A stretch of 64,000 bases of DNA from Lophium mytilinum (GCA_010093605.1 MU004203.1:24156-88155), one strand, 5' to 3'. Numbered from the stretch's first letter, positions 2,179-50,200 are shown. The notes: a model not told the origin generated them from the sequence alone. Numbers and translations: made by a program.

Positions 2179-5100
2179 CTACCCCCCTCTAAAAGAAAGC
2201 TATATATATATAGCCTTTCTATTCTAGTATATATACTTACTATAAGGTAGTTCTTCTTTAGCTAATTATTTTAATAAATTATCTTATAATTATATAGAGG
2301 GCCTATTATTCTTCTAGTTTATACTAGGCGCGCGCTAAGCCTTAAATATAAGGTTAGTAATATAGTTAATCTTATATATATTACTAAGCTTTATTTACGC
2401 AGTCTATATAGTGCGGCGTTATCTAATTTATATAAATTAGTAATAGCTTAGCCGGCCGGTACTAGTTAAGTTTAGTAAGGTAGAGAATAGGCGTTATCTA
2501 TAGAGCGTTATTATAATTAGGGCAAGTAGCGGCTTCTAATATTTTAGTTTCTAGAAGGACTTATAGGGTTCTTTTACTTTTAGGTAGGCGTAGTAATAGT
2601 CTATAATAATATTATAATAGTTAGTAATACTAGTATAAAACTTCTATTAAGAATTAGCGTTCTATTTAGAGTAACCGGTATAAAGAATCTTATACTAAAG
2701 TAGGCCTTTTTAGTTTATAGCTAGGTTAAGTATAGCTTTATTAATACGTAAGTTAATAATTTTATTAACGTTCTACTACTTATAGCCTTCTTTATTAATT
2801 TTAATAAGTCTAGATTTCTTCTAGATCTAGCCCTCTAATAGCTTATATATAATATAATAAAGTAGCTATAAATAAAAGGTATTAAAGACTTTCTTTATAG
2901 TGCGCGGTAGGAATAGTTTATAAGCGGCGTTATTAATAACTCTAGTAACTTTAAATAGACTAAGCTATTTATAGTTAAGTAACTTATTTAGGCGTTAGGT
3001 CTTAATATTACAGGCATTAAGTATAACTTAGTTACTAATTTTAAACTCTATAGCCGGCTTCTATTTTTAATTAGTAAACTCTTCTTATCTAGCTTAAACC
3101 TATATTAACTTATTATAAAGAAAGAGGTAAAGATTATTTAGTTACTTAGTAAGCGCGTTAGCTTTTTCTCTTAGGGGTTTCTATAGTCCCTTAACTATAG
3201 AGTTATTAGCTAGCTTAAGTTTAGAGCACGGGTTGTATTCCTTTATAGCAATAAAGAGAGAGATACTAGTAGTTATTTTATCTAAATTAGCTTTAAACTT
3301 AGTAATAGATAGAAGATTAGCCTAGTTATTCTACTTATAATTAATATACGCGCGTAAGTACTATTTAAGTACTATATTAGCAATTTCCGTTTATCTATCT
3401 ATTTTAGAATAGAAGGTAGTAGAGAGCTTTAGCTTTATTCTAACCTAAGCGTATAGTTACTTCTAGAAGTAGAAGATAAATTAAGGGCCTTAATTAGAAA
3501 TAATTAAGTATAGGTATTCTTCTTCTTACTATATCTATTTAATAAACGCCTAGGTAATATTCTTAGCCTCTATAGAGTCTATAGTAATAAACTTTCTCTT
3601 CTTTAAGAATTAGTTAACTATAACTATAATATATTCTAGCTTACGGCCCTATTATTTATAGATTAGAAGAGGAGTAATAAAGTTAACTAAAATATAGTAC
3701 TAGTATTAGTCTAGAATAGGTAAAGGGCGGAGTAGTTCTTACTTACCTTTATAGGAGTATTTTAATCTCTTATAAGTAAGATAGGCGCTAATATATTAAT
3801 CTATATAAGAGGTTATCTATAGCTAGTAATAGTACTTATAGAGTTATATATAGATTAATATTATTCTAGTATATCTAGCGGGCTTAGGTTTATATATAGA
3901 TTAGATAATATAAGTGCATAGTTATTTAATATTTAGAATATAAAGCCGCTTATAGATATAAAGAAGGTTATTAATAACTTTATAGTTATCTAGTTCTATT
4001 TATAGATAGTAATCTTAGTAGAATTAAGTAGAGAGCTATTATTAGTTGCGGCGTTTAGTATATTTAACGGCTTATATAATAGAATTATCTTTAGAGTGCT
4101 TTTAAACCTTTTAAAGAATCTAGTTACCTATAAAAACTATTTTCTTAGATAAATTATTTAGCTTATTATCTATAGGCAGCTTCTTAGTAGTAGAATTATA
4201 TAGCTTATTTACTAGGGGTATCTTATTCTTCTTAGGGTGTTCTTATAGGCGAGCTAGGCTAGAGTTATTTATCTTATCTAGTATAGCTGCTGTTTAAGAG
4301 GCTGCAGGTGTAGTTAATTTCTTAGGGCGGCCTCTTATATAAACTTATAGTCTAGAGTTATTTAGCTTATCTAGAGTAGTAGGTAGAGGGCGTATATATA
4401 TAAATACTACTAAGTAGATATTATTATTATCTAGATAATTAAATTTACTAAAATTATATATTATTTTAGCTAATTTAATAGAAGTATATTTAAATGTGTT
4501 AGTAAGAATGTATATAAGCTTAATAGTATAATGCATTTCTAGTTTATAATTAGATAGCTTTAGTATAACTTATTTTTAATACTTATACCTATTATCTTCT
4601 AGGGCTAGCTTATTATCTAGTTATTAAGTTAGTAGATTAGGCTTCTTATTCTACTTGCCTAGTTTATATATAATCTTAAAGTTAAACTTAGCTAGAAACT
4701 TAGCCTAGTAAGCTTATTAATAATTAAGGCGCTTAGAAGTTATAAATATTTAAAGGTTCTTATAATTTAAGATAATATTAATAGGGCTATTATACTTCTA
4801 TTCTTATCTAGTAAGCTCTAGTCTCTATTCTTTAAAGGTAAGTACTATGGCAAGAAGCTCTTTATTATAGATAGTATAGTTAATCTATTATAGTATTATC
4901 TATTATAATATAAAGGCAACTAGGTAAAGTGTTCTATTAGGCTAGACCTATAATAGCACGGTAGTAGTTATATAGTTAGAGGAGTTATATTTAATCTAGG
5001 TATTATAGTTAGAGTTCTATAGTGTAAGCTATAGGGCTATATAAAAATATTCTTTAATATTATAGAACACTTTAGCTTTATTACTATTATCTAGCTATAG

Positions 5101-8100
5101 AAATTTAAAGCCTTTTTATATAGTAGAGATTAGCATTATTAGTAGAGCTATAAATATAGAGTAGTTAGCTATAAAGTATTAATAGAAATTATAGAAGCTA
5201 AGGAACGCTTATACGTCTTTAAGGTTTTATAGTATTAGCTAGTCTAGTACTATTTAGACCTTAGTTAGATCTATTTAAACTCTATTAACGCTAATAAGTA
5301 CGCTAAGATATTTAACTTTATTAATAGTAAATTTATATTTATAGATATTAAGAAACAGTTCTATATTATAGAGTTTAGTAATAACTATAAGAATATGCGC
5401 TTTATACTCTTCTAGTATATTACTATATATTAAGATATTATCTATATATACTATATAGAAGTTATTAAGGTATTTTTATAAGGTATTAGTTAAATATACT
5501 TAGAAGAAACTAGATGCGTTATATAAACTAAACGGAAGAACTATAAATTTAAATAAATTCTAATAAGTAAGAAAAGTAGTCTTATATTTATTACCTTCTT
5601 TAATATAGAGGGCGTTAAACGCGCTAATTATATCTAGTTTTATATAGTACTTAACTTTAGCTAGTAGTATAAAAGTATCTTTTACTAGCGGTAGTATATT
5701 ACAGCTCTTAATGCTAATTTTATTAAGGCTATAGTAATTAATATAGACGCGGAGTCCTCTACCTAGTTTCTTAATAACTAAAGTTAGTGCCGCGTATAAT
5801 AAGAAACTTAGTTAAATAAAACCTTTTACGCGCATCTTATTAATAAAGGCTTTAATAATAGCGGCTTAATCTCTTAAAAGGCTATATACTTTCTAGGCAG
5901 GCGGCTTAGAATTAGGGAGAACGTTAATTATATAGTCTATTAGTTAATAAGATAGAAGTTTATTAGCTTTATAAGGATTCTATACATCTACTATATAGTA
6001 TAGCTAATTAGAAAGTAGCTCCTTAATCTCTTTATTAGTAATTAGAGGTTAATTTATCTTCTTAAAGAACTTCTAGTAATTAAAAGAATTAATAGTAAAG
6101 ATATTAGCGGTAAAAGCAGCTATTTACGCATTATATAGAATATTATTAAGTTTAGTAAGGCTATATAGGGCTAGATCTATTTCTAGTATAGAGGTATAAG
6201 GCGTAGAAGAATAAGTTATAGGCTAAGGCTTTCTATATTTATATTTCTTAATCTATTACAGCTTTTCCTAATTATTATTCTAGAGTTAGATAATATAGTT
6301 CTCTTTACTATTATGCTAGAGCTTTTAATAGGCTATTATTATATTCTTTACCTTATCTAGTTCTAGGCTAAGCTTATAATACTTACTAAAGACTTCTTAA
6401 AGTACGGTATTATATATGCGCTTACCTACTTAGGTAATATTATAGTTCTTACTATTACTCTATATATATCTATATCTATCTATATATAGATAATAGTTAT
6501 AGTAGAAGTCTTTATTAAAATTAAGGGCGTGCTCGCCCTATATAATATTAGGCTTATATTTCTTAAACTATAGTATTTCTAGAATAATATTATAGCCTTT
6601 AAAGTTAGTAATATAATATTATATATTCTCTATATATACTTCTAAGAATAGTATAAGCTAGGCCTTATAGGTTATAAGTTTTATAAGTATACTATTAGCT
6701 AAGCGTAGAGGAATAGAAGTAGCTAGCGGCATTATTATTAGCTTATTAGCTTTAGCGTATAATTAAGAGATAAAGGTAAAGTAGAAGCATTCTATATTAG
6801 TAAGGCAGCGGCTATTAGTTATACTATTAGGTATATAAATTCTATACTTAAAATTTAACTACTTACTATAAGTAATATCTTAGGTAGAGTTAGTAGAATA
6901 AGCTAATAGTTAGATTTCGCCGGGCTTAGAAGGCGGCCGTTCTAATTCTTAAATGCGGGCTATAATAGTACTTAGAAAGAATTCTATATAGCTCTATCTA
7001 TAACTATAGTTAGAGTCTATATAAAACTCTCTCTCTTACTATTATTACTACTACTACTATTACTAAGAACGCTAGAAGATAAGACTTTATTAGCGTAAGT
7101 AATAATAGCTAGGTTCTCTCTATTACTATTAATAGAGATTAGGTTATTATTATTCTTATTAGTATAGTAGATTATAGAAAGCTTTAGTTTAAGGCTGTTA
7201 TTAGCTTTAAATAGGCGCTTAGTTAGCTTGCGCTTAGATAGAGGGGGGTTCTAAGCGTAAGGGCGCTTAGAGTTATTAGCTTAGTAACCCTTCTTAATAT
7301 AGTAAAAGTAGTAGCCTTTAGTGCGCAGAACCGCTATAACTATAGAAGAAAGGTAAATAGGGTAGTTATCCTAGTTCTTACTATTATTGCGAGTTAATAG
7401 TTATTATATATAGCTCTACTTAGGGCGGCAGTCTTAGTAGTTATTTAGTTAGTAATTACTTAAGTAGTTATTATAGTAGGTAGTATAGAAGCCGGGTAGT
7501 TAAGAGAGCTAGGTAGTTATATTATACTAAGTATTATTCTAAAGAAAAGCTTTAGTGCGGAATACTATAGTAATAAGTATAGGCTAGTCTTAATAGCTAT
7601 TAGCGCTGCTAAATACTTAGCCGCTAAGATCTAGGTATAGAAGGCGCTTAAGCTATTCTTTCTTAGAGGTAAAGGGCATCTAGTTCTTATTATTAATATT
7701 AGTTATCTCTTTAAAATATAGTATATATATATTCTATAACTTATAGCCCTTTATCTTTATCTTAGGGCTATAGAGGATATTATCTATATACGCAGGCTTA
7801 TTAAATATAGTAAAATATAGGTCTATATATATAAATATCTAGTTAAGAATTATAAAGTTCTTATTTAGTAAGGGCTTTTTAAACTAGGTATAGCTATAGA
7901 TAGTAGCTTCCGCGTAATTAATATAGTATAACTTAATATATTCTATCTTACTCTACTTATCTAGGTAGGCTAGGCCCTTATATTAGAAGATAGTATAGGT
8001 ATAGCTCTTCTAAGATAGGTATTAGTATTTATTACTCTTACTAGTAAATTTCTAGAAATTCTAGAATTTAGGCTTATAGTCTCTATAGAGCTATAGGTAT

Positions 8101-10025
8101 ATAAGCTAAGTTATAGTATTATTATCTATAATAGTAAAGTTATTATAATTAGTATTATTATTATTATCTCCTAAGTTATAGTTAAGGTTGCCTGCGGCGG
8201 CGGCAGTAGCGCGATATAATTAGGCGGGTACTAATACTACTATCTAGTTTACTTTTAGATTAGTATACTACTACTTATAGGTAAGGCTAAGCTCTTTAAA
8301 GTAGTTGCGCTAGGTTTATAGATAGTCTAAGTTTTATTATACTATAGTAATATCTTATTAAAGGGCTTTATTTACTAAATATACTTTAGTAAGAAGAAGG
8401 GTTTTAGCTTTATAAGCTTTATATTTAGTAGTAAACTATTAAGTATACTTAGTATATGCCTTCTTATTTTCTAATTAAAGACGCGTAATATCTTTATTTA
8501 GTTAAGTAACTTTAGCTTATAAGTATAAAATTTTAGAGTTATAAGCTTTAGCTTAGTTATAAAGGGTAGTTAGCTCTATATTATAGGCTTAGTAGTCCTC
8601 TTAAAGAGATTCTAGGTTCTACTAGAATATAGTAACTCTATAGTATATATTCTTATAATACTTAGAAACTATATTATAGAACGCTTTAGTAGAGTTAAGG
8701 TTAATATTAATAGTATTAGTAACTCTATTATAGTTAATATAGAATATAATTCCTTTAGCTATTATAGTAAAGTATAACTTTTAGTAGCTAGAGTTATAGC
8801 GTGCTAACGCTAATAGGCCTAGTATAGGTAATTCTAGATTAGGTTATAATAGTATAGCCGCGGTAGAGAGGCTCTATACTAATAGAGGTAGATTATTATT
8901 ATACTTTTTAGTGCGCTAGGCTTTCTAAGTAAATAGAAGGACTAGGCTAGCAGGAATATTATTATTTTATATATTAAGAAGGTCGCCTTAAGTAAAGTAG
9001 ACTACTTTCTAGAGGTCTATAGCTAACTAGAATTAGATATTATCTTCTTCTTTATTAAGTTTATTAAGCTTCTAGTTTAGTTATTTATTATCTTTCTTAT
9101 TAGAGGTAATATAGAACTCTTTATTCTCTAGATTAAGAGAGTAGTTACTGCGCTAGAGAATAGTAGTTAGCTAGAGGCGGCTATAGGCTATAGCTATACC
9201 TAGTCTAATAGTACTAGCCTTTAGTATATAGAGTTTACTATAAGTAGCTAGCTACTCTAGAGTAGAACTAATACTATATTAAGATAATTTACCTACCTTT
9301 TTATATAAGGCTTTAGTATATTAGGTCTCTTATTATACTTACTAAGAGTTAGAGGCTAGTATTAACTAGGTAGCCTAGCTATTAAGGGTAGAGTATAGGT
9401 TAGTATTACTACTCTTATTAGTATATATACTACTAGAGAAAGCTTCTAAATATACTATAGTATATTTACTACAACTTAGTATTATAGATAGTTAATTCTA
9501 CTTATAAAGTCTTAAATAAGAAGAAACTAGTATTAGAAGGTTGCGCTAGTTAACTATTACTAGTTAGGTAATAGTAGAGAGTATTCTAGTAGGTAGATAA
9601 TAGTCTAGATAGATAGATAGTAGTCTAGGTAGATAGATAAAGAAAAAGATTAGTATAGAAAGAAAGGTTATAGGGCCTCTATAAAAGCTAGAAAGTAGAT
9701 ATAGCTAGTATACTTCTTAGTAGCTATTCTTAGCAGCTAAGCTAATTAGTAAATAATAATAACTGCGCTAGGTTTAGTTAGTTTACGCGTATATAGATAG
9801 GGGCGTAATAGTAAGTAGATTTATAGAGCCTGCGCGTTAGTTTATATAAGTAATAGAGTATAGTATTCTTACTATAAGGCTATAGGGCCTTCTTCTATTC
9901 TAGTTTCTTATTAATAAAGGTTATAGAAATTAAATTTAGTAGCTATAGAGGTGCCGGTATATATATAGATAGATAAAAAAGAGTACTTTTAATATCTTCT
10001 AGAAGCTAGAAGGGTAGCTACTTTA

Positions 10026-10246
10026 TATTATAGTGTAATATAGAATTATAATAGAAAACTAGATAGTATTAAGTATATAATAAAGTAGCTATAAGAAGAG
10101 AAAGTAGAGTATAGAGCGCCGGCTAAGAGGTAGGTAAGGCTAGCGCTAAGTAAGGTTATATAACGGTGGCACGTAATAGAAACTATATAACGCTATTACT
10201 TATAATAGAAATATATTATAATAAGAGTTACGTTATAGCTATAATA
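10026..10246 (-). repeat. 5' LTR of inner Gypsy element
   Basis: 221 bp. Followed on the minus strand by the PBS (10025-10015) and flanked by TSD GGCGT. Confidence 0.95.
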
Positions 10247-13200
10247 GGCGTAATCTTATTTAGCGCGTATATATAACTACTAGTTAGGCTCTATTATTCT
10301 CTAGCTAGTTAAACTTACTAAGGTTATATATTATAGAGGCTAGGTCTATAATAGTATACTTAGGGGCGTTATCTATAAGAATATAAGCTAGGTTAATAGT
10401 ATAGTATATATTAGGCTTATAGTTAGTAGGCTTAAGTATAACTTACTTCTAATATTTATAGTAAGCGTTATCTTTAAAGGGCTTATTACTAGGTTATTAG
10501 GTAAGGAGATCTAGCTTATTATTAAGCTTACTAGGCTTATATATAATTTTAAAGTTAAATTCTACTAAGAACTTAGCCTATTAGGCTTAATAATAGTTAA
10601 GTTATTTAGTTATTATAAATATCTAAAGATTCTTATAATTAGAGATAATATTAATAGAACTACTATATTTCTAACCCTAGCTAGTAAGCTCTAGGCGCTA
10701 GTCTTTAAATACTAGAATAATAGTAAGTAGTTCTTTATTATAGATAGTATAATTAATCTACTATAGTATTATTCTTTATAATATAAAAGTAATAGGTTAT
10801 AGAGTGCTATCTAGTTGTATTTATAATAGCACGGCGGCAATAGTATAGTTTAAGAAGTTATACTCTACCTATATTTTATAATCTAGATTCTATAGAGCTA
10901 GCTAAGAAGCGTTTCTAAAGTATTCTTTAATATGTATAAATATATATACTTTATCTCTATTATCTTTCTAGAGGAATTTAAATAATTTTCTAGCGGATAA
11001 TATAAGTATAGAGAGAGGTGCTATAAACTTAGAATATCTAGTAATAAAATAATAATAGAAGTTATAGAAACTAAGAAAAGCCTATATATTTTTAAGGTTT
11101 CTTAGTATAGGCTAGTTTAAAACTATCTAGACTTTTATAGAATCTATCTAGATGCTATTAACTTCTATAATAACGCTAAGGTATTTAACTTTTTATATAG
11201 TAAATTTAGACTTATAAATATTAAGAAATAAGCTAGCGTCTTATAACCTTATAACTATAGATATAATATATTTCTTATAATTATCTAGGTTATTACTAAA
11301 GATAAGGACGTTATCTATATATACTATGCAGTAGTAATTAAGATTCTTACGCAGCGTATTATTAATATAAGCTTAAAATAAGCTAGGCGCGTTATAGAGC
11401 CTAAATAGAAGAACTATAAATTTAAATAGACCCTATTATATTAGAAATACTATCTTATACTTATTATCTTCCTTAATATATAGGGCGTTAAATACGCTAA
11501 TAACGTCTAGCTTAGTATAATATTTAGCTTTAGCTAGTAGAGTAAGTATATCCTTAATAAGAGGTAGTATATTATAGTTTTTAACTATAATATTATTTAG
11601 TCCTCTATAGTTAATATAGATATAAAGGCCGCCTCTAGGTTTTTTAACTATAAGTATTAAAGTAGTAAAGAATAATAAGCTTAGTTAAATAAAGCCTTTA
11701 GAGTGTATTTTATCTATAAATACTTTAATAATAGTAGCTTAATCTCTAGAGAGACTATAGACCTTCTATATAGGTAGTTTACTATTAGGCTTAAGATTAA
11801 TAGCGTAATCTATATCTTAGTAAGAGAGTAGAATATTAGTAGCTTAGGGGTTCTAGGTATTATAGAGATAGTAAAGCTAATCTAGAAGAAGTTACTTAAT
11901 TTCTATATTAGTAATAGAAGGCCTATTTATTTTATTAAAGAACTTTCTATAGTTAGCTAGGTTAATTATAAATAGATTAGAAGTAAATATAGCTTATTTC
12001 TAGGCTAGAGTATTATTTAGCTTAGTAAGCCCATAGAGAGCTAGATTATTAGCTAGAGTAGCTTTATTCTTTTAAGTATTAAGGTGGTAAAGCTTATTAA
12101 AGTCTTTATCTTATAGTTAGATAATAGCGTCTTTCTTACCTTTACGGGTAAGCTTATAATATTTAGTAAGAAAGTTATTAGCTTTATCTAGGTTAAGGCC
12201 TAGCTTATAGTAATAGTTAATAATTTTATATAAGGCGCTATTATATAGCTTTTTTCCTTTATAGGTAATATTTTAGTTATAGCTATTACTTTAAACTTAT
12301 TAGTAGCTATCTATATATAGATAGTAGCTTATATAGTAATTAAAATTAAAATCTAGTATATACTCTCCCTATATAGGGCGGGGCTTATAGCGCTTAAACT
12401 AGAGTATACTAAGAATAATATTATAGCTTTAAAGGTTAGTAATATAGTACTATAGATATTTAATATACGCTTTAAGTAATAGCGTAATTTAAGCTTTATA
12501 TATAACTATTAACGTTAAGTAGCTATTAGTAAGCTATAGTAGTATTAGTTTAGTAATTATAATAGTAATAAGCTTATAGGCTTTTATAAATATTTATAAT
12601 ATAAAGACTAAGTAGAAGTATTCTATATTAGTTAAATAGTAACTATTTACTATAGTAGCTAGCTTAGTGCTAGTACTAGAGATATAAATTCTATATTTAA
12701 AGTTAAGTTATTTACCTTAGATAACTTCTTTAGATAAGTTAATAGCGTAAATAGAGAGCTAGAGTTTATCTAGCTTAGGGGGCGGTTACTCTAGTTTATA
12801 AATATAAGTAACTAGTATACTTAGATAAATATCTACTAGACTCTAACTATAACTATAGTTAGAGTCTAGGGAAAATTCTTACTATCTAAGAAGTTACCCT
12901 GTAAGGAGTTTCCTTATATAGTATTATTATTACTACTATTATTATTAATAGTAGCTAGAGTGTTACTAACTTTAATATCTAATATAGAATTATCTATATA
13001 GAAGACTATAGATAGCTTAAGATTAAGTCCCTTCTAGAAGTAGGTAAGTTATTATTAAACTATTTCTTTAGATAAGGGGGCGCTCTTTATATAGAGTTAA
13101 TTACAGTCTAATATATAATATTCTATCTTAAGGTAGTTATAGTAGACTTTTTCTATTTATTTACTAAGTACTATAGTTACTATAGAAGGAAGATAAATAT

Positions 13201-15945
13201 AATAGGTATTACTATTATAGTTATAGCGGCGTAAGCTATTATCTAGAATAGATTATAATAGGTATATCTTAGAGTTATAGTTAAAGTCCTATTAGAAGCT
13301 ATAGTTAGACTTATTAGTAAATAGCTTATTAGTATATTTTAAGCTATTACTATTATTCTATAATAGGCCGTTAGTATATTACTATTTATAGGCGCGTTTA
13401 TACTTACTAGCAAGATATAATACTGCGCAGTTAATAGTAGTAACTAGTTCTAGCTAGAACGTGTAATTATTAGCGGCGCTAAAGACCTAAGTCTAGAGTT
13501 TAGGGGTAATAAGGCGCTTAAGCTATCCCTTTTAATTAATAAAGTCTATCTCTCTATTATTATCTATAGAAATTATTTTCTAGAATTAAAAAAGAAAAAT
13601 AGACTATTTCTTATTATACTTTATATACGCCTGCTAGCTATAGAGCTTATTATTTATAGCTATAGCCTTATCTTTAATTATAAAGTAAGGATCTATTATC
13701 TTAAATATCTCTTTAACTATTTTAAAGTTATTATTTATAGGGCGGTTCTATTAGGTGTAATTATATACTACGCTATTAGTAAATTCTACGCAGTATAATT
13801 TAATATACTTAAGCTTAGCTTATTTATTATAGAAGTCTTAAGGCTTATTATAAAAGATAGTATAGGTATAAGCTTTCTATAACTTATATTTAGACTAGTT
13901 ATTATATTCTTTAAACTTCTATAGATTATAGAACTTAGTATATAGCTAATATAAGTTTATAGTAAGTTAGGCATTTAGATTATATAAAAAGTTAGGTTAG
14001 ATAAAGTAGTTATAGTTAGGTAGCTTATTATTATTACCTTTATTAGAGAGGTAGCTATAGTTACTATAGATAGTAGTATTATCTTATTAAAAGCGTATTT
14101 AGAGTTACTACTATATAGCTTACTTATACTTCTTCTTATATTCTATACCTTAGGCGTAGAAGGTATTACACTACTATTAGTATTAATTGCGGTAAAAGAT
14201 AACCTTAGCTATCTTAGTAGTAAGGCCTTTAATCTTAATACTAAGCTTAGTAATAAAAATAGCCTAAGTGTTATTTTTCTTATACTTATCCGCCAGCTAC
14301 TTAGTAAGGTAATTACGCTTATTAGTAAAGTTAGTAGCGTTAGTATATATTTTAGCTATCTAGTAATAGAGCTTTATATATTAGTTATAGAGGTTTTTAA
14401 GTTTAACCTTATTTAACGTGCCTATATTCTATTCTTAAAGTTATATAATCTTATTATCTTTCTATTAAATAGCTACTGCTATATTTCTAATATCTTTATA
14501 CAACTTACTAAGTTCTTAGTAATAGTTAAGTAGTGCGGCGTAAATACTAATATATTTATCTTAAGCTATATTATAGAGCTCTTCTATATTATTAATAGTA
14601 ATATTAATAGATTAGCTATCTCTAGCTTAGTTAATAGTAAAGACTATACTATTATTATTATCTATAAGAAGGGACTATTAATAATTAGATAGTTAGCCGC
14701 TAGTTCTAGTAGAACTTACGCCTGCGTTAGCTATATTAGGCTATTCTTAGCTAGGGTAGATATTTAGAATTATAATAGTATTAGTAGTAGAGGTAATAAC
14801 CTAGTTCTTTAAGGTAATTAGAATTTAAAAGAAGAATAGAGTAGTTAGGTTAACTAGAAGTTTAGTAAATTAGATAGCTTAAGGTATAGATATTTTAGTA
14901 AATAACTTAAAGTTCTCTTTATCTTTACCTTAATCTACGTAGGCCTTATTATTAGTATTCTACTTAGTAGAGTTAGTAAGGTTATAATAGGCTTAGCTCT
15001 ATAGTAGGTTAGTACTAAATTAATTTAGTAGAAGGTAAATATCTAGTTCTAGATTACTAAATTTCTTAGTACGCGTAGTAAAAGCTTCTAGAGTAATAGT
15101 TAGTTAGTATTATAATACTCCTCCGCCGCCTATTTTATAGGCGGCTTTCTTTTCTTAGTAATTAAGCTTATACGCCTTTTAAGAGTTAGATATAAAAGTA
15201 GATTAAGTAGCTTATAAGTTAAAAGAGAGAGTAGAAGTATAAGTAAGAATAACTAGATACTTATTAGCTTTACTACTAGAAGGTAAATCTATAGGCTGCG
15301 CGCTTAATATAGTTATACTGCGTAGGGTTAGAGTTTTTCTACTATAGCTTAGTATAGCTAGTTTTAGAGGTATTATTTATATCTTTACTAGTAAGCGTTA
15401 GTTAACTATCTAATAGAAAGGTTAGTATAGAATAGAGAGTATAGATTCTCTATAAAAGCTTAAAAGTAGGTATACTTTTAAAAATAGCTAGCACTATTAT
15501 TACTATTCTTAGCGGCTACCTTTAATTAGTAAATAAAAATAGAATAACTACGCATAGACTAGTTAGTTGCGCGTAATAGAAGTAAGTAGATATATAGAGT
15601 CTACGCGCTAGCCTATTACTAATAGAGTATATATAGTTCTTACTCTATTATTAAAAAGTAAGTGCGCTTATATTAGTTAGTTGCGCGTAATAGTAAGTAG
15701 ATTTATAGAGCCTATATGCTAACTATAGTAGATAGGGTATATAGAGTTCTTACTATAAGATTATAGAACCTTTTTTTAAGTCTTTCTATATTAATATAGA
15801 GAGTATTAAATTTATATATTAAAATTTTAGCCTATTAAGATAGCTACTTAGTTAATTATAGGGTTACTAGTATTAGTAGATAGATAGGTAGATAAAAAGA
15901 GAGTGCTTCTAGAAACTTCTAGAAGCTAGAAGGGTAGCTACTTTA

Positions 15946-16165
15946 TATTATAGTATAATAGTAGATTATAAAAGAAGACCTAATATTAGTATATATAGAT
16001 AAAGTAGCTATAAGAGAGAAAGAAGGGCGCGGAGCGCCGGCTAAGAGGTAGGTAAGGCTAGCGCTAAGCCTAGTTATATAATAGTAATTATATACTAGAG
16101 GGTATATAATACTATTATATATATTAGAAATATATTATAATAGAAGTTATATTATAGCTATAATA
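15946..16165 (-). repeat. 5' LTR of outer Gypsy element
   Basis: 220 bp with the same termini and central gcgcggagcgccggctaagag core as the other LTRs. The U5-side segment has diverged beyond simple RIP transitions. Confidence 0.9.
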
Positions 16166-16999
16166 AGTAGTATTTCTCTAGTTAATAGTACTCTTAATAT
16201 CTATCTATATACTATTTCTTATCTATATAGTTTTTATACTTTCTATATCTACTATAGACTCTAGCTCTATCTAGCTACTTAAGCCTAACTTAATAATAGA
16301 ATAGATACCTTTTTTAATAACTATATTATAGCTATAGACTTAGTACTACTATACTACTATACTAAGAAGAAGAATAACTAATATAAATATACTATTCTAG
16401 GTACTTTCTATCTAATATATTACTTCTAGGTAATATTTATAGTACTTAGAGGCGTCTAGAAAAATATATAGTACTATACTAACTATAAGGCTATCTATAG
16501 CTATCTTAATAATCTAGAGAATAGACTAAGATTCTATCTTACTATAGTTATATAGAGATAGTATACTACCTTTACTACTAATAACTTAGCTTAGTAAGTA
16601 TAAGTTAAAAAGGGGGAAATTAAGCTAAATATACTATTTTTACCTTTTATTACTAACTATATTCTTTTTTTCTATACTTAGTCTTTTTATACCTACTTAT
16701 ACTAGCTCTAATAGTAGCCTTAGGTATTTAGTTTTAAAACCTAGTATAATACTAGCTATTTTATTATTACTATTATATATATATATATCTTTACTTAAGT
16801 AGAAGCCTTAATCTAGTAGAAGTTCTACTAATTACTATAAGCTTTAATTAAGTAGAAGTATTAAAAGTTATTAATCTAATACTTTTAGTTATATAACTTC
16901 TAGAACTACTAGTTATATATAGGCCTCTTCTATAGTATATATAGATAATGCCCCTTAAGTTAAATATAATAAGAATTTACTTTAATAGAGGATGCCTTA

Positions 17000-17263
17000 G
17001 GGGTGTTTTAGTTACTTATAGTAATAGTTAGAATTATAGTTATAGGTTACTAAGTTGCACTACGATTCTCTTTAATTAATCCGTAGCTACCTGGGTGTAG
17101 ATTGCAGCTGCGCACCATCATTAAGAAAGTTCGAATCGACATCTTCCTCGAGCCTCGAAGCTAACAGACCACACCATGATTTCTTGGAAAAGACGCTCTT
17201 GACTACTCCATGACCATGGAGTTTCTCGGAAATGTGATATCTCCGTGGTGGCGTTGTCATCAT
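17000..17263 (-). pseudogene. Possible gene 5' end running into the RIP block
   Basis: Minus-strand TATATAA at ~17340-17346 and ATG at 17263. Frame MMTTPPRRYHISEKLHGHGVVKSVFSKKSWCGLLASRLEEDVDSNFLNDGAQLQSTPR, then TAG/TAA stops begin where the sequence turns AT-rich. Confidence 0.35.
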
Positions 17264-17367
17264 CTGTTTGCAACCTGTTCCTCCTTCGTCTTGATTGAAT
17301 CTCCGAATGAAAGATTCTGCGGACTAGGACTCGGGGAGCTTATATACCTCTGGAGAACCCTCTTTTG

Positions 17368-17506
17368 CACGTGAGATTGCGTGACTTCATCGCGGCAAAG
17401 ACTCAATCACGTGCTGCTAAACGGTGCGGTAGAAGGACGCTTGTTGCCCAGCCTACAGTCATGGAGATCCGCCCAGGAGGATTCTAAGTCACGTGGCTTT
17501 CACGTG
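17368..17506. promoter_or_regulatory. Cluster of four CACGTG E-boxes (bHLH sites)
   Basis: CACGTG at 17368, 17408, 17490 and 17501, just upstream of a minus-strand TATA box. Confidence 0.5.
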
Positions 17507-21225: not shown

Positions 21226-22408
21226 ATGCGTCCAATTAACAAGAAGGTCGCGCACAAAGAGGAAGTAGAGTTTGAGGAAGAAGAAGAGTATGAAGAAGAA
21301 GAGGAAGAGTATGAAGAAGAAGAAGACGAGGAGGAAGAGTCCGACGAAGAAGAAGAACTTGTCAACGAGGAGCCCCCGAAGGATGTCGATTGCTACAAGG
21401 TCCTCGGAGTAGAGAAGACAGCTACTGCAGATGAAGTGAAGAAGGCCTATCGCAAGGCAGCACTTGTGCATCATCCAGGTAAATTTATATTCTACTCTTG
21501 AGAGACGATATGAGAGCATCTATCTAGTCCCATTGTCTCGACTTCCTCGTACTAAAACTCCCCCAGACAAGGTCAAAGAAGAAGACAAGGCCGCCGCCCA
21601 CACTACCTTCCAGCGCATCGCTCTCGCCTACGCTGTCCTATCAACTCCTCACCGTCGTGCCCGCTACGATGCCACCGGCCGCACTGACGACTCCCTCTAC
21701 CCTGGCGGCGACGATGATGACGGCCCCTTCGACTGGCAATCCTTCTACCGTGCTCAATTCGAAAATGCGGTCACCGACGCCACTATCGAGAACGCCCGCA
21801 ACGGCTACGTCGGCACCGAAGAGGAGAAAGCGGATCTTCTCAAGGCATACGAGAAGGTCAAGGGCGATATGGCCAGGATCTATCAGCTCGTTATGTTCGC
21901 AGAGCCGTGGGAGGACGAGGAGAGGTTCCGGGTCATTATCGATGCGGCTATCAAGAACGAAGAGGTCACGGGTTGGAAGAGATACATGATTGAGACGCCG
22001 TACGATCGGGAGAGGCGCATTGCGAGGGCGAAGAGGATCCGGGATGGCGAGGCGAAGGAGCTAGAAGATGAGAAGGCTAAGAAGGCTAAGAAGGCGGGCG
22101 GGAAGAAGGGCGCGCAAGAATTCAAGGTGGAGGGCTTCGGCGATCTCGCGGCTATGATTCAGCAGCGACAGAAGGCGAGGAGCGGCTTCTTCGATCGACT
22201 TGAGGAGGCCTATACGCCGGCATCGCGGGGCAAGAAGCGACAGAGCGAGCCGCCGGAAGAGGCGTTCGCTGCAATGGGCGAGAGAATGAAAAAGAAGAGC
22301 AAGCAGAGCAAGCCAGATGAGGCCGAGGAAGAGTCTGAGGAGGCTGAGGAGGAGTCTGAAGAGGAGAAGCCGAGACCTCGTCGTCGCCTTGGTCGTAAGA
22401 AGACGTGA
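21226..22408 (+). CDS. DnaJ-domain protein, DNAJC9-like (2 exons: 21226-21478, 21567-22408)
   Basis: Acidic N-terminus, then a J domain [30 protein letters not shown] with HPD restored by the 88-nt intron GTAAAT..ACTAA..CAG. Followed by [25 protein letters not shown] and FFDRLEE.Y motifs typical of DNAJC9. Confidence 0.92.
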
Positions 22409-23991
22409 GTGGCTTCTGGCTGACGACTCCTTAATGATTTCATGAATGATCGGTATGGGTCTCAACTTTCAGCGTGGCGTTCGGCAGGGCATAGCATCTG
22501 GGAAGGCTGCGTGGCATTAGCATAGGTACATACCTTCCTCTAGATGAGGACACTGATACTTTTCAATTGCTCCAAATTCGGAGCTTCAATTCGAGACACT
22601 CATCACAAAGTTCCGTACGTCTTCTTGCCACTGTTTGCCGTGCTTCAAGGTATTTGAAAACTGTGAACCCGATTGCAGGCTAGTATTTTGATTGATGGGT
22701 AAACTCGCGAAGCCACCTCAGACAGCGGTAAATACGTATGCGCTGGAGCCCAAGCACCTTATTTCCATTCCTTCAGCTCTATCACTCAATTGTCCTGCAA
22801 GCAAGAGCATTTCCAAGCTGCCCAGCTGTATAGAATCCTCAGCATATAGCCGCTTTGTTCTCGTGGAACTACGAGGGTACCTCGTTTGATAACCCTTCCG
22901 TCTGGACTCCCCGACAGGCACTCCTGAGATATATAGCCTCCTCCGCCCGGTACTTACCATCTCAAACTGTTCAGATGTCACTCTTGGCAGGGCAGGTTCT
23001 CCACCCGTATATTCTGATTCTCCTGCTCTGGCTTCCCACTTCCCGAATCGAGCGCTACCCGAGTAGCTGTGGATGACACAGTACACTCCCCCTTGTGTGT
23101 CCAGAGCTCTGGCATAGCCGCGATCGATCCGGCCGTGCTTCATCCCGGCCGACCGAGAGGAGTGGGATTGGGCGTGGCCGGTGTGCCGAGTTTGGGGGTG
23201 ACTTGACGGTGCTGGGCGACATCTCAGCTAGCCCTTTGATGGACGAGAGTAAATTGGACCGTGAAATGGGTGTTTGAGGATCTAGATTGAGGATACGGTT
23301 CTGAAGAGCAAAGAAATTAGCGCGATGTTGAGGCTTGTAGGAACACGGCTAACCTGCTCGAATGGCAACATTGTTCTGCAGTCGTGGGGATCGAAACGAT
23401 GAGCTCGCCCGCTACAACTACAGGCCTGGAGACGCTCCAATGAAAGGTTCAGATTTGAGATATGGCCAAACCCACCACAGAACTCTGCTCGCGTTGCGTC
23501 GGTACTCTTGCGGTGTGTGAAGATGCATACGTCCGGCAGTCGATGTGACCTCCGGCCCACGAGGAAGATCGCCCAGTTGCGGATCGAAGCTGCTTCGGAG
23601 CTGGTTCTCGGGCGGCGGTATGGAAGCGAGCGGCTGAGTTCGGGCTTCTCTAGAGGCACTAGCTATCGAACAGGAATCTGAAGTATGGATTGCATTGCGG
23701 CTGCGGAGGTGGCGGGGGTGGAAGAGGCGGAGGAAGTGATTGAGGAAATGGGGGAAGCGATTGAGAAGATGGAGAGACGGAAGGAGGCAATTGCGCAGTG
23801 AGCAGGAATGCTCCCAGCAACACCCACAGGAGCCAGAAAACCATCCAGTGCCATCAATTGACCTGCAAATAGGGCCGTAGTAGCTATTCATGTCTGTCGC
23901 CTTGCCAATCGCGCCATAGTAGCGCCCAATCCCCACCGTGAACCTCTCACTTTACCATACCAATCCAAAAGTAAAACAAAAAGGGAAAACC

Positions 23992-24014
23992 GCACCCGGA
24001 CTCGAACCCGGTGC
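23992..24014 (-). promoter_or_regulatory. Extragenic Pol III B-box in a hairpin
   Basis: GCACC-G-GG-TTCGAGT-CC-G-GGTGC, a consensus B-box. Confidence 0.65.
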
Positions 24015-24052
24015 TCACCTACTATACTTGGGAAAAGCAAAAAAGGGCAAAA

Positions 24053-24126
24053 GGAAAGGGTCGTGCGCGAATCGACACACGACGGAAGAATAATATGATA
24101 AGAATATCTCATTAAGCTAACTTTCC
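24053..24126 (-). ncRNA. Putative unclassified Pol III small RNA (74 nt, tRNA-sized)
   Basis: TATATATA ~30 nt upstream (24159-24152). The 5' GGAAAG pairs with 3' CTTTCC. A-box-like TAGCTTAATGA and an 8-bp GTCGTGTG/CGCACGAC hairpin. Immediate TTTT-GCCC-TTTTTT terminator, and a downstream B-box GGTTCGAGTCC in a hairpin (24014-23992). Confidence 0.6.
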
Positions 24127-26155
24127 TGAGAGAAGCGACGAAAATATTTGATATATATAGGTAAGTGAGAACGGGATTCTTTATCAGTTGCCTAGGGGAT
24201 ATAGCGGGAGGGAGATTGCCGCGCGGTGGGTGAGTGCCTGGCTATATCGGTGAGTGCCATAGCAACCGGCAATGGAGCGTCGATACGCCCACACCGATGT
24301 CGGCGCAAGCGAGACTGATATGAAGGGACGAGCTGTCTGTCGCGAGTTAGCTCTGATCTATCTTGGTGTTTGAGGGATCTCTTTCTTGATAGCGAATGGG
24401 TGCGGACTCGACCCGTTCGCACACGGCATCGCACTGCTGCCTCTCTTGCAAGGCTTTCGTCGCCTCATCCCAACTCTCACAATTCCGTTGCTTCGAGACT
24501 GCTCTTCATTGATGCGCATGAAACTAGACTCGTAGTCTAGCCAAGGCGAAGTCAACAGCCATTTCTCCGTACGTTTTTCTGCTGGGATCGGTTTAAGGGG
24601 CCCGAATCTTGTATGTGACTATCGGACTGACAGCATTCCGACTCGCACCTCCAACTAACGATTGCTCGTTCTGGCCATTCTTGATTTTAACTGTTCTGTT
24701 TTGTGTTTCCATATCGAGTATCGAGGACCCACCTAGAAGTTCAATGCGCCCTTCTTATTTTTCCTCCTCAATATCTGTACAATCTCAGCATCTCGGGTGG
24801 TCTTGGTGTTGAGTAGGAACCAGACGTGTCCTTTTCTTTTTTCATCTAGGTTGTCATCTATTCTTTTCTTTCCAGACAGAGATTGCGTCATTTAAGACAG
24901 TAAAAGATATATAGGGATGTTCGCTTCTTGAGGTTTCTAGTAACCATCGTATAGCGGCTAGTCTAGATTTGTTATATCGGATCTGTTTAGGCATCGAATA
25001 GACTGCCAGGGCGAGAATTACCTCCTACAATGGGTTAGCGTCGGCATTTCCTGAGAGTGTGACTTCTCGACCTCGAACGAAACATCTATATCTTCACAAC
25101 GCTGTCTTGAGCTAGATCTAGGAGTAAAGGAGGAACACTGAAAACTTGGGTTTTGGCAATGAATCTGGGGTCCTTTTGGCCCGCTCGCCGCCTGCTGGCC
25201 GAGCCGCTCCTAACGCTGGTAACGGGCGTGCAAGAATGGAGATCCAGGGGTGCGATATCCGTGTACATGTACTCACAGTCCCCAGGAGTTGACAGCTAGG
25301 TGTGATATGACATCTTGCACACGAGTTTGAAAGGGTCTAGAGAGCAGTGACTTGTAGTCATGATGATATTCTGAAGAGGTTACGTTAAAGTATTCTATCT
25401 ACCTGTGCGTAGTGGGCTGAGTCCCAACCTGGCGGTACCGAGCCCAACAAAACGCGGTGAATATCTCTAGCCAACTGGGGTAAATTATTGTGTAGATCAC
25501 AACTGGGCTACCGTATGACTGGCCAAAGACGTGCTAGCTGGGGTACTCCTGACAGTGGCGTCGAGCAAGCAGTATTGGTTGCCGGGCATTGGGATATCCG
25601 TGTGCACTGGGCCGGAAAAACCACGAAGAAGGCCATCTAGACCCAAGTTTTCCCAGACGGGCAGCACTTCTGGGGATTTTTTGATGTCGTGGCTCTCTAA
25701 AAATGGTCAAGGAGCTGATATACGGGCCCTTATATCCTGCACATCTCATCGAGCCTAATGGAAAGGTGCTGGAAATGTAAATCTTGGATGCGTAGGCCGG
25801 TTAGCTCTGGGGTTCCTGACTCGGTATAGAAGGTATCAACTCGGTTCATGTAGAGCTTCAATACTGCATTACCAAGAAATCACATGTTTAGATAAGCTTG
25901 GGTATAAACCTAGTTGAACATACTGCTAAAACCCGATCTAGGCAAGAGAAAAGGTACCAGAAGGAGACATGTAGTGCAAGGGGAGTACAATTTATCGTAG
26001 TTTGCCCTATCAAAGCCACATGAAGAGGCACAAGATGCCTGACTTGGATCACAAGTCGCCGTAATCTACCAACATAATCCGAAAAACTAGACAAAGAAAC
26101 AAAGATGACTGCCGGCACTGATGAGAGAAACTATTACCGCGGTAGGGCCTTCAAA

Positions 26156-27385
26156 CTACTCCTCATCCAGGGTGCGATCAAGTCGAGCAATCTTGTCCCT
26201 TACTTGCCCCAATACACGAAACAAGGACTTGTTCGGGGACGTCGAATCTTTCAGACGCCGTACCAAACCGTTCACGAGGAGGTAGGCCTCCAAGATTGCT
26301 TCACAACGGCGTAGCGACCGTCCCTTGACAGAAATAACAAACGAGCGAAGTCCATCAGGGATTGAGTTCATCCCCTCGCCCAGTGTGTCCTTGTCGACGT
26401 CGAAGTCGACGGTGTTTCTGCTGCGTGGCTTGAAGCCATCCTTCTCCAGCACCACCTGTAGCGTTTTCAGTCCCGTGAAGCCCCTCTCCCGCAAGTCGTA
26501 GAACTCCCGAAGTTGTTTCCCCAAGCTGTCGTCGTACTCCCAGCGGTGAGCGTCGAGGTGGAAGGCAACCTTGTGGATGAGAGGACGAACGGCCGGCTGT
26601 GGTAGGTTGATGACCGGAATAGCTCTGTCTTCGTCGTGGCTACGGCGGTTCAAGTGGTTATGCGGGAGAACAATGTAGGTGTTATCGCCGTCCGCTGGGT
26701 AAGGGGCCCCATCTAAACGCTGTCTCGCGTTCAAGGCCGGTACTCGCACTAAAGCCGTTCGATTGTCAACCTCCCATTGTTTGAGATACTCAATCTTCGT
26801 GACTTTCTTTTGCTTCCCTCCTCGGGGTCCTTGGAAGGGGAGTTTGCGCTCTTTTAGCAGGGCGTCTAAGGCGTCAAGTGCCATGCTGTTGTAGTCGTAC
26901 TCAGGTAGTGGGCCAGGACGTACGAATTTGAACCCGGCGGGATGGACAGACTTGTCATACTGCTCGATGTAGAATGTGATGTTTCCGTAGTAGACCTGCT
27001 CGGCCTCCTCGCGAAGCTGTTTGCTCACCCTGGCCATACGTTGGATACGGGTTTGGTAGAGCGGACGGTGCAGTCCGATGATAGGGCCGTTCGTGTGGAA
27101 GAGATGGCGTAGAATATTTTGCCTGAGTTCTAGCGGAATACCCATGAGAGAGGGAGTGGCGGACATCATGCCGTCGGGAAGCGGTGGCAGGGCGAAAAAC
27201 GGGGTAGTTATGCTGGGCGTCGGGACGAAGAGACCCTCAGATGTCACCTTTCGGCGCTTTGCTGTATGCTCGTAATCGTTCGAGTTTCCCGCATATTGCT
27301 TCACCGCACCATCTGGGCCAGTTTTCATGATGATTGTGGAGTTGTCATGGGGATCGCCCTTGGAATCGACCGGATGAGACGCCAT
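26156..27385 (-). CDS. Uncharacterised F-box-like fungal protein, paralog A (with a SAP-like insert)
   Basis: Long uninterrupted ORF with first ATG at 27385. Motif PSLMGIPLELRQNILRHLF...RVSKQLREEAEQVYY...F. Collinear similarity to the next ORF. Confidence 0.75.
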   Translation of the reverse strand: MASHPVDSKGDPHDNSTIIMKTGPDGAVKQYAGNSNDYEHTAKRRKVTSEGLFVPTPSITTPFFALPPLPDGMMSATPSLMGIPLELRQNILRHLFHTNGPIIGLHRPLYQTRIQRMARVSKQLREEAEQVYYGNITFYIEQYDKSVHPAGFKFVRPGPLPEYDYNSMALDALDALLKERKLPFQGPRGGKQKKVTKIEYLKQWEVDNRTALVRVPALNARQRLDGAPYPADGDNTYIVLPHNHLNRRSHDEDRAIPVINLPQPAVRPLIHKVAFHLDAHRWEYDDSLGKQLREFYDLRERGFTGLKTLQVVLEKDGFKPRSRNTVDFDVDKDTLGEGMNSIPDGLRSFVISVKGRSLRRCEAILEAYLLVNGLVRRLKDSTSPNKSLFRVLGQVRDKIARLDRTLDEE

Positions 27386-27937
27386 ATTGGGGTTGTCGTG
27401 TGCGATTGACTGGCTGCAGGAATCTTTGGAAATGGGATACGACAAGGACCCCGGGACGTGAGGTGAAGGGAAGAGAAGCGCAAGGTGTGCGTTCGAGCTG
27501 GGGGCGAGGGTGTGTTGGGTTGGTGTCGGCAGGTTCGGGAACGGATTTAGCCAGGAAAGCTTCTCGAAGCGAGCTCTTATCAGCGGGAGTGCACAAAATC
27601 AAAAGTGAATGGGGTAGAATTTATGAGCGGCATCTTTGTGAGAGTGGACCAGGCACTCACGTCCTGGAGCCCCGCCGGGCATTAATTCACCGGTCGAAAC
27701 CTGATAGTGGATATTAGACTACCTTTTGCGGAAGCTGGTGCTTGCTGGCAGGGGACTCCTTACAGTGGTGTTCACCAAGAAAGATTGGAGTTGAAGCACT
27801 GTGGAAGACGCGGAGTGAGTAGATCACGTTATCAGACAGGTAAGGAAAATGCATGGATTGGCGATCTGTTCCAAATGGTCTTGTACTTCCTACCAACTTG
27901 GAAAGGAACATGCACCCGCAGGCCGCACTCAGAGATT

Positions 27938-47244: not shown

Positions 47245-50200
47245 GGTGCCAGGACTAAGCGAACGAAGAGAGTGATATGCGACCGGAGGGTTGCAGTGTA
47301 GCGGACGAGGTGTCTGCGATGTATCAACATGGATTGCGGAATGCCTGTCGCGCGTCCAGGGACTGGGGAAAGCGGGCTCGCTCGGTATCGCGGAGGTCTA
47401 TAGGAAGAGGCCGAAAGGATTTCCGTCGTCCTGAGTAACGGTCGTATTGAGGAGAAAGCAAGGAAGCGGTAGCTTAGCGGAAGGATACCTCGGGGTACTC
47501 ATTTCGATGGGCTGTCCGATCATTCGCGGGTGGATTCCTTGTTCCCTCGGCATTTCCTGACGAATCAACCTGTACTTCATACCTGTATCAAAGTCAGTAT
47601 ATTCTGTTCAAAAATGACTTTGAGAGATCCTAAAAATACGAGCCTTCAATCTGACTAGCCCGCAGCGACACGCGTCGCGCTCTTGAAACTGGTGAAGCTG
47701 AGCGACCCAAGAGGAACGAATAGACAGCGGATTTCGACTCCCTTGCTACGGTTGATGAAGGGGGCTCGACGCTACGACTCCTGAGATGGAAGAATGTGTA
47801 TAGTCTGATGGCGCGAAGTTGGCGGCGGCCGTTCTCTCATCGTGCCCAAGAGCGCGTTGGGCCTTTTGCTGCGCAGTTGTAGCACTTCACTCCGGATGCT
47901 TGTTCGACGATAACTCAGGATAACGATTCCGCGCATACCTGTTAGAGAGTCGCTCTTCAGCCTCTCGTAAAGCGCGCAGCTGCAAACAAGAATGAAGACA
48001 ATCAGTTCCAAAGGTTGGTGATGACGTCCACTCCCCAGCTCTTCCGCACTCCAACCATGCGACAGATGATGGGAGCCATCACTAACACAACACCACAACA
48101 AGCCAAAATTCTCCAGACAAGCAGCCAAAGCAAGGATGATTTCTTCTTCGAAGCCCCAGACAAGCTGAGAAGTTCAATGAAAAAAAGTTCGCGTCGGCCC
48201 GAGGCAGTGCAATACGAGCGACACTGTGCCCCCGGACATAGGCAAGCCCAGCGGCCCAGGAGCGGTTTCCAAAGAGTGGATTAATCAGAAGGAACCCCGT
48301 AGGGCTATCCCAGCGATTAAACTGAGAAGAACCTGAGAGGATTGTTAGCAGGAGGATCAAGAAGAGTGAGAGGGAAGAGGAACTTACAGATACTACACTT
48401 GATCTAAGCCAAAAGGCACTGAGAATTTTATTAGCCAAGGTCGAAAGGAGAGGAGTGAGGTCGAAACTTACAAGAGAGCTGGAAAAAGGAGGAAGGTCGG
48501 GGGGCGGGCGGTCTTATATACCTGGCTGACAGAGAATTTGCCAGCCGCTTACTAAGCTATTGGTAAGCTGCTGCCTAGAATTTAGGAGCGTGGAATGTCG
48601 CGGAACGTGGCGGAACGTCGTTGAATGAGGTGTCTGGGGACGTGCGGTGAGCGGCCGGCCTTCGACTGTTCACGTGACTGAGCCGCCACCCCGTTCCAAG
48701 GGCAGTGTCGCTAGTAACGTGTTTGTTAGAGGGCTCTATAGGTATATGTCTTTCCAGAGTAGGTCTAATCTTCTTCACTTCTATCCCTCTATCTTCTCAC
48801 TACTATGTGGCGGTGTGAACTCCGTTTCTCCTCAGGCTCAGTAGTCATCTCTCTACAGTTGACTTTCCTCAAAAATTAGGTGATCCCGTGCACTCATCCA
48901 GCGGCCAAGTTGTGAACTAGGCTTGACTGCTTTCTTCCATCTCCGTCACTACTTCTAGATCTTTTTTATGTCTACACCATCTTCGGGCAGCTCTTACCCT
49001 ACACCGACAGCGAACCAAGCATGGAAATTCACAGAAACGTCCCGTCTACAGCAATCGATGTCTGAGGTATGTGTATACGTATCCTTCGTACTCGCTAGTT
49101 ACGGCTAAAGCTCCTACGAGAATCCACAGGGACTATTCGAAATCCCGACGGCGACCAGGAGTTGGAAAGACCGTCGCAAATGAAATGTCCCGCACCAACC
49201 TCGACCTCCCTGGCGGGGCAGACTTGGATTATCCGAGGCGATGTTTATCACGGCATCGCGGACTGTGAAAAACGTAAAGAGGGTACCTATGGAGCTGCTG
49301 GATAGGTAAGACGGAAGAAAGAATGGTTTCACATCACTCACGAGCTTCCCAAAATTCTCTAGGCCGACAAAGTCAATCTCTAGTTATATATAGGTAGTCA
49401 CAGAGATTTACTCCAGCTTTCATTGAATGGCTCAGCTTTGAGCACTCTTCAATCTTTCGAATGATGATGCCATGGCCTGAGGCCGACGGGTGGGCTATCT
49501 GGCTGCCAATAGGATACAAGTACAGCATGGGGTTTTACTCGCATCCAGGTACCACTCATTGAAGAGAACCGTGGCCCTTTGCATCCTTATTCCAGATCTT
49601 GCTCTAGCTTGCTTAGCCGGTTCGATAATAGCAAAAACTCTCAAAAGTTCCGTCGTGATCGGAACCGCCTTTGCTGCCCCTTCTAATCTAGATACTTGGA
49701 AAACGCGAGGATCTTTCTCCAAGCATCCTTGCGGTCTCCTAACTTTAGCAACTTGGAAAACAGCACAACATCCTTTTCCATCTAAGCTGGCTGACACTCC
49801 CCAGTCATCCTCGCCGGCCTCATCCCCCAAAGCGTGATCAGCTCAACCTAAAGCACCTCCCTCTACTTCTGCACCAGGTTCGGCCTCCTCGGCGTCTTAC
49901 TGGAGACAGTAACCCACCAAACCTTCTCCATCGGCTTCCAACCCCTAGTCCTTCACTACCTCGAACTCAACCGCACCTCCGTCATGCCCCGAGTAAATGG
50001 ATCCTACGGTTATCATCCCAGCTCTACCCACGCCATCGGCTGCAATGCCAGTGTTCGCTTCGAAACCTCCGCCGCCTCCTACGCTTTGCCTCCTCAAAAT
50101 GCAAGACCACCGACCTGGCTATCCTATACTTTGCCTTCCTTCGCGAACACTTCACACGGGTGTGAATGAGACCCCGCTCCGCAGCCGCCGACCCCGTTCA

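Follow-up and report, generated by a model that had tools for sequence, protein, structure and literature searches.

We report that the minus strand of the 64-kb window (the whole stretch of DNA analysed here, with positions counted from its first letter) carries a locus that is best classed as a putative, as yet unproven, stand-alone Pol III small-RNA gene with an SNR6-type promoter. With a probability that we put at roughly 0.6, the locus is a Pol III gene of the SNR6 type that makes a small RNA under selection and probably derives from a tRNA gene. The parts of the locus are the following:

24161-24151, minus strand: upstream TATA element CCTATATATAT, read from the sequence
24126-24053, minus strand: predicted 74-nt RNA body, from the sequence and its fold
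24119-24109, minus strand: A-box-like block, RNA positions 8-18, in the same place as in tRNA genes
24052-24033, minus strand: terminator region T4-GCCC-T6-GC-T4, read from the sequence, with T4 at 24052-24049, GCCC at 24048-24045, T6 at 24044-24039 and a further T4 at 24036-24033
24008-23998, minus strand: extragenic B box GGTTCGAGTCC, forming the loop and upper stem of a hairpin

Counted from G1 of the body (24126), the first C of CCTATATATAT is 35 nt and the TATA core 33-25 nt upstream, with a spacer of about 25 nt separating CCTATATATAT from the 74-nt body. The A-box-like block fits 7 of the 9 specified positions of what we take to be the tRNA A-box consensus. In tRNA genes the A box begins at +8 (PMC5356446). 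Three T-runs stand directly 3′ of the folded body, the first of them being only T4, and more are found beyond the B-box hairpin, where T4-CCC-T5-G-T4 occupies 23989-23973. About 19 bases lie between the last T4 of the terminator region and the B-box hairpin (24014-23992), which consists of 8 bp with one G.G mismatch and a 7-nt loop and has a predicted energy of -12.7 kcal/mol. The original prediction had listed a TATA element, a 74-nt string, T-runs and a B box, and all of these were found where it had placed them; its distance of about 35 nt to the downstream B box was roughly right as well, the box starting 45 nt past the last base of the body and 30 nt past the T6.

For 3.7 kb around the candidate no gene is recognisable, and this stretch has the following borders:

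21440-22405, plus strand: DNAJC9-like gene
26159-27598, minus strand: ORF of no family

A comparison of 11 flanking ORFs from the 22.7-24.6 kb interval with Pfam gave no match. A block with a GC content of 26-28% fills 1-17.5 kb of the window and ends about 6.5 kb from the candidate, and a U2 gene is also present in the window (Rfam, 83.6 bits). At 24398-24421, 280 nt upstream of the candidate, there is a T-arm-like hairpin with a one-mismatch B box. The window has 13 such one-mismatch boxes where 9.7 would be expected, which is chance level, and neither ARAGORN nor Rfam detects a second small-RNA gene in 24300-24960.

The same order of parts had been claimed for a U6 gene near 63.7 kb, and this gene is confirmed by Rfam (RF00026, 58.9 bits, 63805-63656, minus strand), with its TATA element, terminator and B-box hairpin in place:

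63837-63618, minus strand: U6 gene, whole unit from TATA to B box, by Rfam and motif reading
63837-63829, minus strand: U6 TATA element CCTATATAT, 32 nt before the Rfam-aligned start
63765-63716, minus strand: mRNA-type intron of U6, 50 nt
63628-63618, minus strand: U6 B-box hairpin, 14 nt beyond the T8-GCCC-T5 terminator

The distance from TATA to start is alike in the two genes, being 35 nt in the candidate and 32 nt in U6. Alignment of the two loci is confined to CCTATATAT and the 13-mer TTTTGCCCTTTTT, their flanks being otherwise unalignable, so the candidate did not arise by copying the U6 locus and exchanging the body. A duplication of the U6 flanks is ruled out too, because the common sequence amounts to the TATA 9-mer and the 13-mer alone.

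Within the 64 kb the exact 13-mer TTTTGCCCTTTTT occurs twice, at the candidate and U6 loci only, and with up to one mismatch it gives 3 matches against 0.13 expected, a count that none of 100 shuffles reaches. GTTCGAGNCC likewise occurs only at these two loci (2 occurrences against 0.41 expected, with 5 of 100 shuffles reaching 2), and the exact B-box pattern GGTTCGANNCC is found once, at the candidate, against an expectation of 0.22. The string CCTATATAT is non-specific, as the window contains 7 matches to it, mainly within the AT-rich block. The parts do stand in an SNR6-like order, and this arrangement is statistically unusual. As for the terminator string said to be shared with U6, it does exist as the exact 13-mer found at both loci and nowhere else in the window. 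Its GCCC, however, is altered in a related fungus, in which two C are replaced by T (24045 and 24046, minus strand) and the T-run becomes longer. Therefore, the shared 13-mer is not itself constrained and carries little weight, and the identity of the TTTTGCCCTTTTT string is probably of little meaning.

The RNA was compared with known families. At the gathering thresholds of Rfam 15 there is no match at the candidate locus. At E<=10, the 751 nt around the locus yield nothing credible, the plus-strand snoR30 match at E 7.9 being at chance level, and the 96 nt around the body match only a pair of unrelated families, with E values of 3.5 and 7.3. ARAGORN reports 0 tRNA genes in the whole 64-kb window, and 0 genes at the locus itself at the default and 80% thresholds in both the standard and the mitochondrial modes. 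Because neither Rfam nor ARAGORN recognises it, the RNA is not a tRNA, U6, Y, vault or snoRNA, and it belongs to no known family as judged by Rfam 15 and ARAGORN. Searches with Rfam and with a tRNA finder (tRNAscan-SE) had been proposed as checks with the original prediction, whose view that this is not a canonical tRNA stands: the RNA has no D-stem, no anticodon arm of 5 bp and 7 nt, and no tRNA call from either program.

Several other identities were tried and rejected. The tRNA-Stop(tta) that ARAGORN gives at its 60% threshold is a forced cloverleaf ignoring the 9-bp hairpin, and the tRNA-Lys given at the 80% threshold with introns allowed is spurious, its 'intron' containing the T-runs. 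A tRNA gene split by an mRNA-type intron is rejected, as the 74 nt contain no GT with an AG behind it at intron distance, and so is U6 identity, as Rfam places U6 only at 63656-63805. A SINE or other mobile Pol III repeat is rejected on the single copy in 64 kb, the unbroken contigs and the flanks shared with the relative; no second copy or paralogue of the candidate was found within the 64-kb window. No C/D or ACA box, in what we take to be their consensus forms, was read in the candidate RNA. A possible pairing with the 18S rRNA 3′-end, through a split 13-nt complement at RNA positions 13-18 and 37-43, is not significant, the complement being present also in 929 of 20000 dinucleotide shuffles (4.6%) and its target motif having been picked post hoc. 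The literature searched contained no published description of such an RNA, and the main text of two fungal ncRNA screens holds nothing of this size and layout (PMC8216456; PMC5640933).

Although no family claims it, the 74-mer is predicted to fold far better than expected from its composition. Its minimum free energy is -22.9 kcal/mol (z -4.63), which is equalled by 0 of 200 shuffles, and the 88 nt including the U-rich tail reach a z of -5.2. The plus strand folds worse (-18.0 kcal/mol, z -2.82), because three G.U pairs exist only in the minus-strand RNA. The predicted fold is Y-shaped, a closing stem of 6 bp carrying two hairpins:

RNA positions 1-6 with 69-74: closing stem, 6 bp
RNA positions 13-36 (24114-24091): hairpin 1, AU-rich, 10 bp, with an A.A mismatch and a UUCU loop
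RNA positions 44-67 (24083-24060): hairpin 2, GC-rich, 9 bp including two G.U, with a 6-nt loop

Hairpin 2 contains a decayed sequence resembling a B box and T-loop, and in the relative this sequence is nearer to the B-box core, so that the B box may have moved from one species to the other. The 3′ hairpin had been described as T-arm-like, but its real stem has 9 bp and a 6-nt loop and is not the 5-bp, 7-nt T arm.

Evidence on conservation comes from three runs compared over 23300-24900, namely two probable source runs (X1 and X2) and an air-metagenome DNA run (X3), which contains a relative and shares 9% of words. The relative is about 92% identical over 23304-24652, in two contigs at depth 2, the first covering 23304-23960 with 50 differences in 657 nt and the second 23966-24652 with 55 differences in 687 nt; beyond both contig ends its DNA is unlike the window. 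No match to 23300-24900 came from a further run, X4, possibly of RNA, an outcome without bearing on expression. A single unbroken contig spans the locus in each of the two source runs, and the relative aligns through both flanks; the locus is orthologous in the relative and appears to be single-copy. A pattern scan of metagenomes for homologues gave 13 matches, of which 0 were alike outside the pattern positions.

Among the 97 substitutions in the relative, 40 are listed, all of them within 24030-24525, and since their density of 8.1% equals the contig-wide rate, we take the list to be complete for this range; the segment with the downstream B box, 23966-24029, falls outside it. None of the 40 listed substitutions falls in 24047-24139, the interval holding the entire RNA, which corresponds to a hypergeometric P of 1.7e-4 for the 93 nt and of 1.2e-3 for the 74 nt alone (40 listed substitutions in 496 nt); a nearby stretch of about 66 nt, 24422-24486, is likewise without listed substitutions. 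The body itself shows a single listed difference, two paired indels in the tip of hairpin 2: a base is missing at 24076 and another is inserted after 24071. Together they keep the 74-nt length and the predicted fold (-21.4 against -22.9 kcal/mol) and leave the lower 7 bp of the hairpin intact. The TATA element CCTATATATAT is unchanged too, the nearest listed changes being at 24162 and 24140 (-14). Since the lack of change extends over the whole body instead of being confined to the promoter blocks, what has been selected is probably the RNA itself, and a body without listed substitution in a relative that has diverged by about 8% argues for function. Of the conservation looked for after the original prediction, the synteny and the unchanged body were thus found and stem covariation was not: no compensatory base change is seen in the stems with the one near-identical homologue compared, so that the structure is not proven.

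These data bear first on the possibility that the locus is a decaying tRNA relic, kept as a DNA element that binds TFIIIC and TFIIIB and acts on chromatin or neighbouring genes, any RNA being a weak by-product without function. The A-box-like block at the tRNA position, the T-loop-like sequence in hairpin 2 and the consensus B box outside the gene would all agree with such a relic, as would the end of the AT-rich block about 6.5 kb away. The yeast ZOD1 and YGR033C loci, which are tRNA-derived and weakly transcribed, and the ETC sites, which bind TFIIIC only, provide precedents (PMC5356446). The second T-arm-like hairpin with its one-mismatch B box might be counted in favour as well, but boxes of this quality are no more frequent in the window than chance predicts. 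A role at the DNA level would, however, constrain the boxes only, whereas the whole body is without a listed substitution while the relative does have changes in the spacers that adjoin the TATA element and terminator; moreover, the fold lies far beyond that of shuffles and is better on the transcribed strand. We therefore regard a bound relic as unlikely.

A chance juxtaposition of functionless motifs, or a mobile or duplicated Pol III-like unit of young age, would have to account for motifs that are jointly rare, a fold with a z of -4.6, a body without listed substitution at the same locus in the relative and the lack of a second copy in the window, and is considered highly improbable. Somewhat less remote, though still quite improbable, is a Pol II core promoter followed by the folded 5′-leader or cis-regulatory structure of an unannotated minus-strand transcript (23950 and below). 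Here CCTATATAT would be the common promoter-like string that its 7 matches in the window indicate, pyrimidine-rich tracts are usual near the start sites of fungal Pol II promoters, and the homology to the relative extends downstream to 23304. Yet the T-runs after the structure and the hairpin fit the need of Pol III and the U6 gene, a consensus B box stands within 50 nt where about 0.22 are expected per 64 kb, no Pfam match occurs in the 6 minus-strand ORFs of 22.7-23.95 kb, and the downstream DNA is at background divergence (50 differences in 657 nt). Taken together, a selected RNA product is favoured over a TFIIIC-bound relic, a Pol II leader and chance, ranked in this order, because the entire body, and not the boxes alone, is conserved.

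The original claim of a functional small RNA holds in so far as the body is conserved in one relative and matches no family; Pol III transcription, the RNA ends, the tRNA ancestry and the mode of action are what we infer from the sequence. For the favoured selected RNA, we propose that TFIIIC would bind to the downstream B box and to the A-box-like block at +8, and that TFIIIB would sit on the TATA element, which would fix the Pol III start at or just before G24126. Stopping in the T4 and T6 runs would then release the 74-nt body with a short U tail. A short U tail on Pol III transcripts is the form that is bound by the La protein. The gene may have arisen from a tRNA-gene ancestor that lost its cloverleaf and would now rely on external promoter parts. 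Such descent is suggested, weakly, by the A-box-like block at the tRNA position together with the T-loop-like sequence in hairpin 2; against it, the cloverleaf of ARAGORN is forced and appears only at the 60% threshold. In tRNA genes, transcription starts 10-12 nt before the mature end (PMC5356446), and compared with these the A box of the candidate would stand closer to its predicted start, at +8 to +11.

With regard to the mode of action, the closing stem could stack on hairpin 2 to give a helix resembling that of an acceptor and T arm, which leads to a low-confidence guess that the product might be a stable protein-bound RNA, serving as a tRNA mimic or as a decoy for a tRNA-handling factor. 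In its fullest and more doubtful form, which we offer only tentatively, the proposal would be that a Dothideomycete turned a tRNA gene into a selected small RNA, which lost the cloverleaf and the internal B box, gained a U6-style external promoter, belongs to a lineage-specific set of SNR6-type orphan Pol III genes and works in trans on a tRNA-handling protein, as a scaffold or decoy resembling a tRNA.

To our knowledge, the fungal Pol III transcriptome outside budding yeast is barely charted beyond tRNAs, 5S, U6, RNase P/MRP and SRP RNAs. If the preferred reading is true, the locus would add a small RNA to those of filamentous fungi, would represent a natural case of promoter re-wiring, with an extragenic B box in place of an internal one, and would point to an unusual course of Pol III gene evolution in the lineage. 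Guide RNAs could then also be expressed in such fungi from its compact native Pol III promoter and terminator.

Among known systems, the bacterial and animal Y RNAs and the vault RNAs resemble the candidate as small Pol III-type RNAs with paired ends. The likeness to them drawn in the original prediction was not upheld, since no Rfam Y_RNA or Vault match is found at E<=10 in the 96-nt stretch, and the candidate shows no long Ro-binding stem, which we take to be a feature of Y RNAs. Some Y RNAs are described as carrying a tRNA-like module. Canonical tRNA genes share with the candidate the length, the 6-bp terminal stem, the A-box position and the U-run terminator, whereas the candidate differs from them in having neither cloverleaf nor D-stem nor 5-bp/7-nt anticodon arm, and a 3′ hairpin of 9 bp with a 6-nt loop.

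The closest promoter counterpart considered here is the yeast U6 gene SNR6, which has an upstream TATA element, an intragenic A box and a B box in the 3′ trailer (PMC5356446). The candidate resembles it in the TATA about 30 nt upstream, the early A-box-like block, the T-run terminator and the consensus B box that follows. However, its product is without U6 similarity, the gene is just 74 nt, and 30-45 nt separate the terminator from the B box, a much shorter distance than in SNR6, with the box enclosed in a hairpin. As a stand-alone Pol III-type small RNA gene without family or function, the candidate is also comparable to RNA170 of S. cerevisiae, an orphan Pol III transcript of unknown function (PMC5356446), although the two are not expected to be related in sequence, and transcription has been shown for RNA170 while the candidate is known from DNA sequence. 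Finally, budding yeast has tRNA-derived Pol III loci, ZOD1 from tRNA-Ile and the YGR033C locus from tRNA-Arg (PMC5356446), which the candidate resembles in its tRNA size, its A-box-like block at +8, its T-loop-like 3′ hairpin and in being unrecognisable as a tRNA. Unlike them, it has no parent tRNA that can be named and it possesses a TATA element and an extragenic B box, while the conservation of its whole body in the relative suggests a selected RNA rather than a relic.

The relative represented by contigs in the air-metagenome DNA run X3 can be aligned solely across a 1.35-kb block (23304-24652), where its identity is about 92%, and past either end of this block the DNA is dissimilar. The block holds the candidate Pol III-type gene, and further features of the window are the following.

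21440-22405, plus strand: ORF encoding a DNAJC9 HTH domain (E 1.4e-22) plus part of a J domain
24398-24421, minus strand: second T-arm-like hairpin, including a one-mismatch B box
48183-48429, minus strand: U2 snRNA gene (Rfam, 83.6 bits)
63656-63805, minus strand: U6 snRNA gene, split by an mRNA-type intron

Directly upstream of the candidate's TATA element, the complementary plus strand reads AG/GTAAGT (24161-24169), a perfect 5′ splice-site consensus. This match is probably due to chance, because base 24162 within it differs in the relative.

The one-mismatch B box of the second hairpin, GGGTCGAGTCC (24414-24404, minus strand), is separated from the candidate, on its upstream side, by about 280 nt. 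The window contains 13 B boxes with one mismatch versus 9.7 expected, which is chance level, and neither tRNA nor Rfam calls were obtained near the hairpin. Inside the aligned block, 24422-24486 (66 nt) is another stretch free of substitutions among those listed (40 of 97, all within 24030-24525).

The recognisable gene closest to the candidate is the DNAJC9-type ORF. Farther away, positions 1-17500 have a GC content of 26-28% with TA-rich repeats throughout, and beyond a boundary near 17.5 kb it is 50-55%; this AT-rich block looks like a RIP-type AT isochore.

The U6 gene, which shares the candidate's promoter plan, is interrupted in the catalytic-core region by a 50-nt intron (63765-63716, minus strand) with a GT start, an ACTAAC branch site (63730-63725) and a CAG end, and the 7-bp hairpin immediately beyond its terminator contains its B box. 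The U2 gene, at 247 nt, is longer than the 192-position Rfam model.
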